Position numbers and translations under genes: made by a program | Notes under the pieces: generated by a model | Database searches by the model: none | The model's input: the letters and a program-made list of their open reading frames with translations, nothing else | Told to the model about the DNA's origin: nothing | In this document: piece after piece, positions 17 through 5,612 of the stretch | Layout: each line of letters opens with the position of its first letter | How positions within the stretch are numbered: position 1 is the first letter of the stretch | Assembly (NCBI RefSeq): GCF_003334385.1 | Contig: NZ_QOWN01000032.1 | Reading direction: 5' to 3' (one strand) | DNA length: 48,915 nt | Origin: Escherichia coli | GTDB taxonomy: Bacteria; Pseudomonadota; Gammaproteobacteria; Enterobacterales; Enterobacteriaceae

Positions 17-1135
17 TTAACGAGGCACCGAGGCGTCGCATTCTTCAGATGGTTCAACCCTTAAGTTAGCGCTTATGGGAATGATCCCCGCTTCTTTGCG
101 GTTTTCTGGCGTATAGCCAATGCCGCGTTTCAGCATGTCGCCGTAATCGGGGCGCGTGATTTTCTCGCCGTTGATAACAATTTCGCCCTGTTCATACTCC
201 TCCAGCCCAACAATCGCCTTCAGCAATTCACTGCGCCCTGCCCCCAGCAGACCAGCAATGCCGAGCACTTCGCCACGACGTAGCGTAAAACTGATATCCT
301 CCAGCTTGGGCTTATGGCGTAACGCACGGACTTCCAGCACGGCCTGATCCACAATTTCCTGAGGGGCTACCGGCGCAATATCAACGTGATCGCGCCCGAG
401 CATCAGCGACACAATATGATGCGTGGAGGTGTTTTCGAGCATCACATCGCCCGCCACCTGACCATCGCGCATAACGGTGGCACAGGAGGCAATGCGGCGA
501 ATTTCTTCCATCCGGTGGCTGACATAAATCACCGCCACGCCCAGTGCCGACATCTTTTTCACCGCGCTGATCACCAGTTCAACTTCCGCACTCGCAAGCG
601 AACTGGTAGGTTCATCAAGAATGACCACGCGCGGCTCGCCCTTCATCACCCGCGCAATTTCCACCAGCTGCTTTTACGCCGGGCTTAGCGTTGAAACAAG
701 TTGTTCAGGACTAACGTCAACGCCCAGCGCCTGTAAGCAACGTTGGGCATCCTGCGCCATTTGCAGGTAATCAATCATGCCGTTGCGGCGGGGCCACTGA
801 CCGAGGCAGAGGTTTTCCGCCACTGTCAGCCCTTCCACCAGACTTAACTCCTGATAAACCGCGCGCACCCCCAGTTCAGCGGCACGGCGAGTCAGCGTAG
901 CTTCGTCACCTTCCAGTCGCGTCTCGCCAATCCAGATATCACCGCTATCCGGGCGTTCGCTGCCGGTAAGCATTCGAATGAGAGTCGATTTGCCCGCGCC
1001 GTTTTTACCTAACAGCGCACGAACTTCGCCTTTATTGAGCGTGAAGTTAACGTTATCCAGCGCAACGACGCCGGGATAACGCTTATTTCCTGCCACCACT
1101 TTTGCTACCGGGACTGCCTCTGTTGCCGTGAACAT
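17..1135 (-). pseudogene. yphE: Sugar-type ABC transporter ATP-binding protein (two nucleotide-binding domains), disrupted by an in-frame TAA at 674-676 and ending at TAA 17-19
   Basis: ORF track gives two same-frame minus ORFs (674..1135 and 17..664) separated by one stop. NBD1 Walker A GKNGAGKST, then VVILDEPTSSL Walker B and second Walker A GLLGAGRSEL. Position downstream of yphF matches the K-12 yphFED layout. Confidence 0.7.
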
Positions 1136-1157: not shown

Positions 1158-2141
1158 TTAGGGCAGACCATCAACGTGCGTTGCCAGCCACTGTTTACCG
1201 TCTTCCGTTTTGGTATAGAGATCGATAGGCACCTGAATCACTTTTTCACCGTCGGCTTGTTTATTGATAACCTTCAATGTTTGCGCGAAAACAGCATTGC
1301 CCATTTTCTTACCGGAAATATCCACTACCGCTTTCAGCACCTGATTGTTTTCCAGCTCCTGAGCAATTTCGGTTGTCATATCCGAACCGAAAACAGCAAT
1401 TTTTCCGGCCTGATTTTGATTACGTACCGCTTTTACCGCGCCGAGTGTCGCACCGCCCGATTCCCCCATAATGGCGTTGAGATCCGGCGTGGAGATAATT
1501 AGTTTTTCACCAACGGAAATCGCTTTATCTAAAACAGTCCCTTCCTGATTAGCGACAATTTGCGCGCCGGGAACGCGGGATTTTAAAACTTCTTCAAATC
1601 CTTTACGTCGCTGCACACAAACTTCAAAGGCTTCGCAATTGATGACGGCAATTTTCGGCTGGTCAATTTTATTGGCAATAAAATAATCAGCGGCAGCGTT
1701 ACCCAGTTTTTTACCAAATTCCAGCGGATCGCCGACCAGATACGCCGAGACATATTTATCGACCCCCTTTTGATTAATACAGGTGTTGTAGCAAATCACC
1801 GGAATGCCCGCTTCACTGGCGCGACGAACGGTACGGCTACTGCCATTTTCAGACACTGCCGATAAAATAATGGCATCGACATTACGCGCCACGAGGGTAT
1901 CAACAAAGGTACTTTCTTTCGAAATATCACCCTGGGCGTTAGTTTCTATTAACTGAACTTGTACTGAGGAATCTTTTGCCGCATCCTGAACGCCCTGACG
2001 CACTCCAGCGTAGTATCCCTGAGTATCAAGGTATATTGCGCCAATGGTCATTTCTTTTTCCGCAGCCCTGGCAAATAGTGCGCTACCTAATAGCGTAGCC
2101 ATTAATAATAGATTACGGGTTGTTCTCATTTTTGTAGGCAT
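1158..2141 (-). CDS. yphF: Periplasmic sugar-binding protein of an ABC transporter (327 aa)
   Basis: ORF track. N-terminal signal peptide MPTKMRTTRNLLLMATLLGSALFARA and periplasmic-binding-protein-like sequence; sits directly upstream of the ABC ATPase. Confidence 0.9.
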   Translation of the reverse strand: MPTKMRTTRNLLLMATLLGSALFARAAEKEMTIGAIYLDTQGYYAGVRQGVQDAAKDSSVQVQLIETNAQGDISKESTFVDTLVARNVDAIILSAVSENGSSRTVRRASEAGIPVICYNTCINQKGVDKYVSAYLVGDPLEFGKKLGNAAADYFIANKIDQPKIAVINCEAFEVCVQRRKGFEEVLKSRVPGAQIVANQEGTVLDKAISVGEKLIISTPDLNAIMGESGGATLGAVKAVRNQNQAGKIAVFGSDMTTEIAQELENNQVLKAVVDISGKKMGNAVFAQTLKVINKQADGEKVIQVPIDLYTKTEDGKQWLATHVDGLP

Positions 2142-2237: not shown

Positions 2238-5200
2238 TTAGTGAACGCGGTTAAAAATAAAAGGCATCACGGTGGTGAATAATGCCGCTTTCGGCCAAGC
2301 CGGATTAATCGCCGTCAATTCAGCGCGAGCAGACTCATATTGCGCAACCTCCCCGAGTCCCGCGGACGCCAGCATCGCCACCATCAGGCATTTTTCTTTA
2401 TGCTGCTGTTGTAAATCGCCATACAGCGACAACAAGTCAGGTTGCGAGACGGCAAAGAAATCCGCTTCGATACTGGTTTTCGCCATCTCTTGCGCCCACT
2501 GTTTCATTTCACTAAACAGTTGCTGTGCGGTTTGTTGTTCGCCCAGCAGTCGCAGCGCCATCCCTTGCCAGAAGAGATAATCAACCGGCTGATCGTTGTA
2601 ATAACTGTGAATGTTAATAGTGCGATCGCCGGTCGCCGCCAGACGTAAACAACGCGTCGCTTCAGTTTCATCGCCCTGCGCGTTGGCGCATATCGCCTGC
2701 CAGAACCAGATGTCGTTATCAGTTTGCCCCGGTAAACGGCCTTCGCTTAAATTCTCCGGATAATGCAGCGCGGCATGAAGCAGTTCGCAGGCCTGCTGCG
2801 GCTGTCTGGCATCAAGATGCTGCCAGGCGCGTAATAACTGGTTGAGGATAAACTGACTGGTGACCTTCCCTTCCCCGCCTTCCCACGGGTGGAATTTGCG
2901 CGTGGCGAGAATGTCCGCCGCTTTGTCTGCCTGACCCGTGAGATGCCACAAATTGAGCAGTTCTGCGGTCATGTCGTCGCGTTTCAGCGCAATTTCCAGA
3001 TTATTTTCCAGACGCGCCAGTCGTTTCTCCGGTGTGGCTCCACTTAACTTATCCAGCAAATCCCGTTCGAAAAGCAGACGTGCATCCTGCGGCGCAAGCT
3101 GATAAGCATTATCAAGATAACGCGCGGCCAGCTCATAATCGTGTTGCTTATTCCACGCATGGATCGCTAACCCGCGCCAGCCGTCGGCAAACTCCGGCGA
3201 CATCTCTACGCAACGTTGCCAAAAGGCAATGGCTTTGTTGTAGCTACGTTTGTTGTAGTAGAAGCAAGCTAGTAAATGGCGAGCAAACCAGCACTCTTCA
3301 ATACTCTCCAGCGCCGCCACTTCTTCCAGCGTATTCGGGAAACGGACAAACTGCGGGAAGACATCAATGGCTTTTGCGACCAGTTCGCCACGTTCGGCTT
3401 TCGGCAGCAAGCTGGCTTGCAGGTAAAGCGGCAGCGTGCGCTGGCAGTCCAGTGCGTTCAGCATCTCTGCCGCCAGGGTGGGCATTCCCCAGTTAATCAG
3501 TTGCCCGGCGGTCATCAGGGCGTTAACGTCGCGTCCCTGACACAGACCGCGCCACTGCGCGAGAGCTGATTCGCTACGACCATCGAACCAGTTCAGCCAC
3601 CACAGAGTGGCGTTCAGCGGATAATCGCGCAGCAGTTTCTCGCGCTGCACACGCGCGTTGTCCTGACGACCACTTAACACCAGCAGCAGATTATGCAGGC
3701 AAAGCACTTCCTGATTGGTTGGGCAGGCGCGAAGACTTTGTTGGCAAAAATCCAGACCAGCGTCGAAGTTACCATTACGCGCCGCCAGTCGTGCCAGGCC
3801 ATAATAGCCACCGGCTTTGCTGTTGCCGCTCCAGACCGCACGCCAGAAATCCTCTTCGGCTTGTTGATATTGTCCCTGACGTTCGTAAGCACTGGCGCGA
3901 ATCAAACTCGCCTGTCCGCACTGCGGATTTTTGTTCAGCGCATGTGCGCGTTTCAGAGCCTGAGTGGCATACGCCACCGCTTGCGGGAAATCTGCGCGGT
4001 TATATTCCAGCATCGCCAGCGCCAGGTTACAGCGATAATCCAGCGGGTCCAGCGCCACGCCGCGCAGGTAGTAATCGAACGGTGAACGGCTGGCGTGATG
4101 ATATTGCTCCAGATGCTGACCGATAAACCAGGCTTCATCTGTACTGGTAATGTCTTGTGCTGCCAGTGGCGCTTTGGCGACGTCCGGTAACGGCAACGCT
4201 TGCGGCTGATGTTCCTGATAACTCAGTACAATATTGCCGTCGGCATCGGAGAGCTCAATGGTCAGCCTTTCAGGATTGATACCGTGCAACACGCCCTGGA
4301 TGGCGGTCGCAGGCATCAGTGCCACGGCATCATCAAGTAACGCGTTGCATTTACCGATTTCGCGGATCGCCAGGCGGTATCCGTTCAACGGAGAGATGGC
4401 ATACAGCCCCCACTCAATCCCCCGCTTACTACGCTGGAGTTTTATCACCGCATCGCGGGAGGCATTTTGCACCATGCCCAAAGAATGATAAGGCAGGAAA
4501 TACTGCTCAAAACGCTTCTCTTCGTAAGCATCAAGCCAGGTAAAATCGGGCTGGTTATCGGCAAAAATACCGGTCATCAGTTCGATATACGGGCCGTTAT
4601 TGTCGGTCAGACTCTTATCCCACGCCTGGCCAAATTCACTGTGTCCCCAACTCCACTGTTTTTTACCTGGCGCAATATGGTGGTTGGCAACGTGCAGCAA
4701 ACCGCCATCTTCATCGTGACACCACGCGCCGACAAAATCGTACTGCGATTTTTCGGCCATATATGAGGTTGGAACAGGCACATTTTTATAGCGAGAAATG
4801 TCCACTCCAGCGGAGTAGTCCACTTTGTAGTAAGTGCCGGTAGCGATGGGGAAAGCGGAGACGGCCCGTTTGCCGTGATCAAACACCGCCGTTACATCCG
4901 GCGGGAAGACGCTCTGATGCCCTTCCCCCCCTTTCACTGCCGGGTTGGCCCACCACAAGAAATGACGCGGCGTGGCGTTCCCGTTATAGACGCGGCTGGC
5001 GATTTCCAGCGCCGCCCGGTCAGGGCGCAGGGTGAAACCTGTCATCACCTGTAAACCATGCATCGGCTCCGTTTCGCCTACCCACACCGTCTGTGCACCG
5101 TCTTCATGGGCTTCGAGGGTGAAATCAACGGGCATAAAGGTGGTCGGGCGATGATGTTGCGGCCAGTTAAACTCAATCCCACCGGAAATCCACGGCCCCA

Positions 5201-5612
5201 GCAGCCCCACCAGCGCAGGTTTAATGACTTCATTGTGATAAACAAAATCGCGCTGTTTCACTTTATCCCACGCGCGATGCACCCGACCGCCCAGTTCCGG
5301 CAGGATCATCACTTTGATGTAGTCGTTTTCCAGCCACACCGCCTGCCAGGATTTCAGGGTTTTCTGCTCGCTCAGCGTATCGGTCACGCCGTAGGGATAA
5401 ACCGCGCCGGACGATCCCTGATAAACGCGATTTTCCAGGAACATGGGATGTATATCCTGCGGCCCGGTTTCATAGGTCGGGATCTCAACGCGCTCTTGCC
5501 ACACTTTTACTGGAGTCATGGTGCCCTCAATATTAACAAGACATACTGAATTAAAAGATTTGTGGCAGTGTATTGAACAATCTGGCAATGTTTTCGCGGA
5601 ATAATCACGCAA
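2238..5612 (-). CDS. yphG: Large uncharacterised protein (1124 aa by track): N-terminal globular domain plus C-terminal TPR-like helical repeats
   Basis: ORF track. No catalytic motif I recognise. The start is uncertain: the most upstream start appears to be TTG, and an internal ATG lies 31 codons downstream. Confidence 0.8.
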   Translation of the reverse strand: MRDYSAKTLPDCSIHCHKSFNSVCLVNIEGTMTPVKVWQERVEIPTYETGPQDIHPMFLENRVYQGSSGAVYPYGVTDTLSEQKTLKSWQAVWLENDYIKVMILPELGGRVHRAWDKVKQRDFVYHNEVIKPALVGLLGPWISGGIEFNWPQHHRPTTFMPVDFTLEAHEDGAQTVWVGETEPMHGLQVMTGFTLRPDRAALEIASRVYNGNATPRHFLWWANPAVKGGEGHQSVFPPDVTAVFDHGKRAVSAFPIATGTYYKVDYSAGVDISRYKNVPVPTSYMAEKSQYDFVGAWCHDEDGGLLHVANHHIAPGKKQWSWGHSEFGQAWDKSLTDNNGPYIELMTGIFADNQPDFTWLDAYEEKRFEQYFLPYHSLGMVQNASRDAVIKLQRSKRGIEWGLYAISPLNGYRLAIREIGKCNALLDDAVALMPATAIQGVLHGINPERLTIELSDADGNIVLSYQEHQPQALPLPDVAKAPLAAQDITSTDEAWFIGQHLEQYHHASRSPFDYYLRGVALDPLDYRCNLALAMLEYNRADFPQAVAYATQALKRAHALNKNPQCGQASLIRASAYERQGQYQQAEEDFWRAVWSGNSKAGGYYGLARLAARNGNFDAGLDFCQQSLRACPTNQEVLCLHNLLLVLSGRQDNARVQREKLLRDYPLNATLWWLNWFDGRSESALAQWRGLCQGRDVNALMTAGQLINWGMPTLAAEMLNALDCQRTLPLYLQASLLPKAERGELVAKAIDVFPQFVRFPNTLEEVAALESIEECWFARHLLACFYYNKRSYNKAIAFWQRCVEMSPEFADGWRGLAIHAWNKQHDYELAARYLDNAYQLAPQDARLLFERDLLDKLSGATPEKRLARLENNLEIALKRDDMTAELLNLWHLTGQADKAADILATRKFHPWEGGEGKVTSQFILNQLLRAWQHLDARQPQQACELLHAALHYPENLSEGRLPGQTDNDIWFWQAICANAQGDETEATRCLRLAATGDRTINIHSYYNDQPVDYLFWQGMALRLLGEQQTAQQLFSEMKQWAQEMAKTSIEADFFAVSQPDLLSLYGDLQQQHKEKCLMVAMLASAGLGEVAQYESARAELTAINPAWPKAALFTTVMPFIFNRVH

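Follow-up and report, generated by a model that had tools for sequence, protein, structure and literature searches.

IS186, which is the same element as IS421, belongs to the IS4 family and is present in Escherichia coli K-12 as IS186A, IS186B, and IS186C. IS4-family DDE elements such as IS186 transpose by cut and paste with staggered cleavage of the target, which accounts for the target duplication. The target of IS186 has been described as GGGG(N6/N7)CCCC; the element can insert either way round, and 7 of 59 sites deviate by 1 or 2 bases (Lee et al. 2016, PMC5009759). Its known hot spots are the lon promoter of E. coli B and, in mutation-accumulation lines, menC and fimA (PMC5009759, where SaiSree et al. 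2001 is cited by title). The gene hit by the element in the present case, yphE, encodes in K-12 a sugar ABC transporter ATPase with tandem nucleotide-binding domains (NBDs). The intact K-12 protein is 503 residues long. Its first NBD has Walker A at residue 43, the signature at 150, and Walker B at 170; in the second these motifs lie at 295, 405, and 425, followed by an H-loop at about 460. Pfam ABC_tran covers residues 26 to 178 and 278 to 432. We found no paper naming both IS186 and yphE (the supplementary site list of Lee et al. 2016 lay outside the scope of this search), and a literature search on the function of the Yph transporter returned nothing relevant.

The whole stretch of DNA analyzed here, hereafter called the window, comprises 48,915 nucleotides of E. 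coli contig NZ_QOWN01000032.1. Translation of the window shows that the yphE frame on its minus strand starts with ATG at position 1135 and ends with a TAA at 19-17, which is codon 373. The last NBD2 motif kept in this frame is the second Walker A, GLLGAGRS (residues 295 to 302; 230-253, minus strand), and the stop follows 71 codons after it, with no NBD2 signature, Walker B, or H-loop encoded in between. The window gene therefore does not encode two complete NBDs in one uninterrupted open reading frame (ORF), as it has a stop in the NBD1 signature and an incomplete NBD2. Of the two other frames on the minus strand, one has TAA at 73-75 and 61-63 and the other has TAA at 66-68 and TGA at 54-56 and 45-47, so that no frame joins yphE to the left edge. 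An earlier note, made from the letters of the window, had already reported the end of the frame at 17-19, a distance of about 70 codons from the second Walker A, and the absence of the three NBD2 motifs before the stop, and all of this was confirmed. It had also placed stops of both other frames within the first 60 nt; both are indeed closed, but the last stop of one of them lies just outside, at 61-63. Its figure of roughly 170 further codons needed for a complete NBD2 was slightly high, the missing part being 150 codons (residues 354 to 503).

What the stop consists of becomes clear from the comparison with K-12. The yphE gene of K-12 aligns with the window only from base 77 on, with a sharp break at base 76/77, and bases 1-77 match exactly positions 1266 to 1342 of the annotated IS186A in NC_000913.3. 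They form the right (3') end of an IS186/IS421 element on the plus strand that extends past the left window edge, and bases 55-77 (plus strand) are an exact match to the reverse complement of the 23-bp terminal inverted repeat of IS186, CATAAGCGCTAACTTAAGGGTTG. Window bases 1-90 match sequence that is present in multiple copies in E. coli, with hits in 2,144 of 5,426 complete genomes and in up to 22 places per genome. Next to the element, at 78-87, is the right-hand copy of a target-site duplication, GGAATGATCC, with its 6-bp core AATGAT at 80-85; this one copy and the 77 IS bases are all that is visible of the insertion in the window. The last native yphE codon is Pro353 (77-79). Directly after it the reading frames split: the K-12 protein continues from EAGIIP with WLGVDEN, while the window frame continues from the same EAGIIP with 19 IS-derived codons, ISANLRVEPSEECDASVPR, before its stop. 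Since the TAA at 17-19 (minus strand) lies inside the exact IS186A match, it belongs to the element and merely happens to fall in the yphE frame. On the plus strand, the transposase gene insL would end about 94 nt to the left of base 1. The yphE 5' fragment itself (77-1135, minus strand; codons 1 to 353, covering NBD1 and the first half of NBD2) is a pseudogene that equals K-12 yphE except at base 676.

Over bases 1-1200 the window has an identical counterpart in the complete genome of strain SCU-104, which shows what lies beyond the edge. The order there is yphD, a 465-nt yphE 3' fragment, an IS421/IS186 transposase gene on the opposite strand, the yphE 5' fragment, and yphF. RefSeq labels the 465-nt piece "missing N-terminus" and the other piece "internal stop; incomplete; missing C-terminus." The SCU-104 element measures 1,339 bp between its inverted repeats, with 0 mismatches to IS186A. 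In six loci carrying the full element at this site (L001, L003, L005, L011, L012, and L013), the same 23-mer CATAAGCGCTAACTTAAGGGTTG stands at both ends and GGAATGATCC lies directly beside both; K-12 has a single copy of the latter. With CC…GG taken as the IS ends, the 10-bp duplication is equivalent to one of 6 bp that covers the core AATGAT. On the side of the yphE 3' fragment, the left junction of a simple insertion is expected to pass from ...CCAGGGAATGATCC directly into CATAAGCGCTAAC... (also written as CAACGCCCAACCAGGGAATGATCC followed by CATAAGCGCTAACTTAAGGGTTGTGG), and the uninterrupted site reads CCAGGGAATGATCCCCGC. The transposase, a 370-amino-acid ORF in L001 annotated as IS421 family, scored 133.3 bits against the NCBIfam IS4 family transposase model NF033592, the cutoff of which is 115 bits.

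Removing the element and one copy of the repeat from SCU-104 gives a 1,512-nt yphE of 503 codons with the stop at residue 154 as its sole defect. The NBD2 motifs have thus not decayed but are intact about 1.34 kb to the left, and the missing 150 codons, which include the signature, Walker B, and H-loop region, stand on the far side of the IS. The earlier note had expected to locate them 400 to 500 bp further left; such an extension would end inside the transposase gene. It had also allowed that the motifs might appear in extended sequence once a read error was corrected, and in substance the complete genomes do show them, without any read error being involved. Two of these carriers, Br_112_kylling and 2018-18.25PC, have elements of 1,338 and 1,340 bp with a transposase annotated as frameshifted (L011 2295-3406 and L013 2293-3406, respectively), which could mean either that the copies are old and inactive or that homopolymers were misread. 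In strain VL40 (L012 5684-8146), yphG has an internal stop in addition to yphE::IS186, a further decay of the yph cluster.

We consider it about 95% probable, judging from sequence comparison, that yphE of the source strain is broken by an IS186 insertion, with the left half arranged as in the relatives, plus a nonsense codon at Gln154. On this reading, an IS186 copy (IS4-family DDE, 1,339 bp between 23-bp inverted repeats) has transposed into yphE after codon 353 at AGGG-AATGAT-CCCC, and the staggered cut has duplicated GGAATGATCC. The window opens with the last 77 bases of the element, and the yphE frame crosses into the IS end, runs through 19 foreign codons, and stops at the IS-encoded TAA. 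The remaining 150 NBD2 codons are expected to be intact beyond the IS, just outside the window, as they are in the complete genomes, and a separate C-to-T change produced the stop at Gln154. The identity of bases 1-77, the junction, the single base difference, and the arrangement in the relatives are direct observations, while the simple insertion in the source genome is inferred from the relatives.

The earlier note had instead taken the second lesion for a point nonsense, a frameshift, or a sequencing mistake around positions 17-60 of yphE, with the NBD2 motifs decayed or immediately to the left. In its favor, the frame stops at 17-19 and none of the three stays open, but bases 1-76 are not yphE: K-12 diverges completely at 76/77, bases 1-77 are exactly IS186A, and the part derived from yphE matches K-12 everywhere except at 676. 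That the stop arose by a base change or indel in homologous yphE was rejected on the same ground, as homology ends abruptly at base 77, and we give the point-lesion reading almost no credence. The broader suggestion of the note that yphE is decaying holds insofar as the gene is a pseudogene with two independent lesions and its NBD2 is cut between Walker A and signature; the second of these lesions, however, is an IS186 junction.

More serious, though still quite unlikely, is that IS186 sits at this site in a rearranged form, after a deletion or inversion involving another IS186 copy, and that the yphE 3' fragment and yphD to yphB are absent or elsewhere. The window ends within the IS and its left side is unseen, IS-IS recombination is documented (PMC5009759), and close relatives offer many recombination partners, with 22 IS186 places in SCU-104 and 19 in RM10410. 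However, in all six inspected complete genomes with IS186 at the yphE site the insertion is simple, the target duplication is intact, and the yphE 3' fragment is present; these six include the only complete genome with both window lesions. It is also conceivable that IS186 reads were wrongly joined to the end of a draft contig and that yphE is really uninterrupted. Both window ends lie in repeats, as is typical of short-read contig ends: IS186 on the left and a 5S rRNA gene on the right, where the window stops 70 nt into the gene (48846-48915; rrf of the rrn operon beside kgtP). But a true insertion itself breaks a contig at the IS end, and the junction is base for base that of eight finished genomes, at a sequence compatible with the IS186 target rule, which leaves an artifact extremely improbable. 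It is because the left edge falls inside the repeat that yphE seems to run off the window. In the kgtP-rrf intergenic region near the right end (about 48582-48630), the window is collinear with SCU-104, RM10410, and N18-04097, but K-12 MG1655 differs from it by a small indel in T-rich sequence upstream of kgtP.

The other lesion of yphE, reported by the earlier note as a stop at 674-676, is real. Between 77 and 1200 the window differs from K-12 at one position, base 676 (A versus G), which turns CAA into TAA at Gln154 (674-676, minus strand) within the NBD1 signature LSPAQKQ (668-688). An exact 60-mer with TAA154 was found in 2 of the 5,426 complete genomes, SCU-104 (with the IS) and N18-04097 (without it), and in the latter yphE is otherwise uninterrupted and annotated "internal stop." TAA154 is a genuine segregating allele, not the product of a read error.

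Each lesion is enough by itself to abolish the ATPase of the YphDEF ABC importer, and by its sequence the YphDEF sugar importer of the source strain is nonfunctional. In SCU-104 the IS lies between the promoter side (yphF and the yphE 5' fragment) and yphD-yphC, with the transposase antisense to the operon. The insertion likely separates yphD, yphC, and yphB from the operon promoter, with a presumed loss of downstream expression. The upstream gene of the same operon, yphF (1158-2141, minus strand), which encodes the periplasmic substrate-binding protein, is intact and open in the window according to ORF and annotation. For yphG, mechanical ORF calling gave 2238-5612 (1,124 amino acids from TTG), 31 codons longer than the annotated 1,093-amino-acid coding sequence (2238-5519); the extra length is a start-codon artifact of the ORF listing.

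The two lesions occur in different combinations among the relatives: both in the window and SCU-104, TAA154 only in N18-04097, and the IS only in RM10410. Over 48.8 kb the five sequences compared form a star in which 676 is the only shared derived site, all other differences being private, and a nonsense mutation followed by two IS insertions takes three events, as does an IS insertion followed by two nonsense mutations. We lean toward the nonsense mutation having come first, with the IS inserted twice, because the yphE site has been hit repeatedly. A point against this order is that SCU-104 and RM10410 could be one IS-expanded lineage, with about 20 IS186 copies each. Lineages with more than one lesion in the cluster are that of the window (nonsense and IS) and VL40 (IS and the internal stop in yphG).

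None of the relatives matches the window throughout; even SCU-104 differs from it by 11 single nucleotide polymorphisms (SNPs) over 48.9 kb. Compared with SCU-104, RM10410, and N18-04097, seven substitutions are private to the window (16041, 29694, 31979, 38098, 40743, 48588, and 48710). The first five (16041 to 40743) are absent from K-12 as well, and 48588 and 48710 are not comparable in K-12 owing to its indel. Six of the seven are G:C-to-A:T changes. Of the four coding changes, purL A759A is silent, and the other three are nonsynonymous and affect conserved genes (lepA E69K, rseA P67L, and yfiF Q187L). No exact match to the lepA and rseA alleles was found in the 5,426 complete E. coli genomes. 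The private substitutions could reflect a mutator or mutagenized lineage, or errors of the draft assembly.

We investigated the distribution of the insertion in the same genome collection. The 100-bp junction as in the window was found in 8 of the 5,426 complete genomes and the junction with the IS inverted in 9. The 120-bp site was located in 5,404 genomes; it is uninterrupted in 5,387, and the other 17 are exactly these IS186 carriers. The six inspected carriers share an identical insertion point and duplication, and their 3-kb flanks differ at up to 93 positions; the backgrounds among them number three with one orientation and two with the other. From this we infer at least five independent IS186 insertions at the yphE site. 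With 17 of 5,426 genomes carrying the element, 8 and 9 by orientation and on diverged backgrounds, the comparison indicates that the site is a minor recurrent IS186 hot spot. A single insertion followed by inversion through the 23-bp inverted repeats cannot account for identical junctions whose flanks have diverged by as much as 3%; in K-12-like backgrounds, inversion of the element through these repeats may have taken place. The target in uninterrupted yphE is AGGG-AATGAT-CCCC, which is of the N6 type and has one mismatch in the G run relative to GGGG(N6/N7)CCCC; in view of the deviating sites in Lee et al. 2016, it agrees with the published motif without being a canonical example. Two other one-mismatch motifs in the window, both of the N7 type (GGG N7 CCCC), are unoccupied there: the stretch in rseA (32035-32048) is interrupted in 1 of 5,426 genomes and that in yfiM (47122-47135) in 0 of 4,773, a rough and weak control, as these genes are under different selection from yphE. 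The rseA stretch is split by an insertion near the IS186-type motif in p10B (NZ_CP103758.1).

A widespread resident IS186 copy lies between pdeA and nupC. Its target and the yphE site have a 14-mer, GGGAATGATCCCCG, in common, so that factors other than the G/C flanks may contribute to the use of the yphE site. The chance of an identical 6-bp core in two sites is about 1 in 4,096 per pair, and the shared core AATGAT suggests that the core sequence may influence site choice by IS186. In strain 602354, the resident copy upstream of nupC (L014 1205-1225 and 2551-2575) lies in GCCGGGG-AATGAT-CCCCGGC followed by a T run, a target that looks like a terminator hairpin by its sequence. Gene conversion from the pdeA-nupC copy, which has identical flanks of 11 to 12 bp, is disfavored, as such homology is too short for RecA and, with respect to the asymmetric core, the IS faces the other way in nine genomes. 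Taken as a whole, it is doubtful that codons 351 to 353 of yphE are an undescribed natural IS186 hot spot whose usage exceeds what the G/C flanks explain and that repeated loss of Yph is tolerated or favored in some lineages.

The window thus contains a standard IS-disrupted pseudogene, and the same configuration has already been annotated by the NCBI pipeline in finished genomes. Only the recurrent use of the yphE site by IS186 in natural isolates and the 14-mer shared with the pdeA-nupC target are mildly new. The value of the result is mainly for annotation: a premature stop at a contig edge is a signature of an IS junction, and the correct record is yphE::IS186 plus Q154*, not two point lesions. 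Recurrent insertion in both directions at a one-mismatch target in natural isolates also carries the laboratory target rule to wild genomes.

Compared with intact YphE of K-12 (WP_000493470.1), codons 1 to 353 of the window copy are the same except for Gln154; the window copy has TAA at this codon and does not have residues 354 to 503, with the NBD2 signature LSGGNQQ, the Walker B ILLLDEP, and the H-loop region. Its 77 IS bases are identical to IS186A, as are 1,339 of 1,339 bases of the SCU-104 element, and with IS186A and the pdeA-nupC copy the insertion shares the 23-bp inverted repeats, the 10-bp length of the duplication, and a G-run/C-run target. Only the location differs from IS186 in K-12, which has no copy in yphE. 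Like the known IS186 hot spots, which are GGGG(N6/7)CCCC-type sequences, the yphE site has received insertions repeatedly and in both orientations; unlike them, it has AGGG instead of GGGG and is occupied in natural isolates (17 of 5,426 genomes), not in laboratory lines. The closest counterpart is yphE::IS186 of SCU-104 as annotated by PGAP/RefSeq (HHJ22_RS18730, HHJ22_RS18735, and HHJ22_RS18740), which has the same junction, two partial coding sequences, and the same internal stop, and from which the window genome is distinguished by those 11 SNPs.
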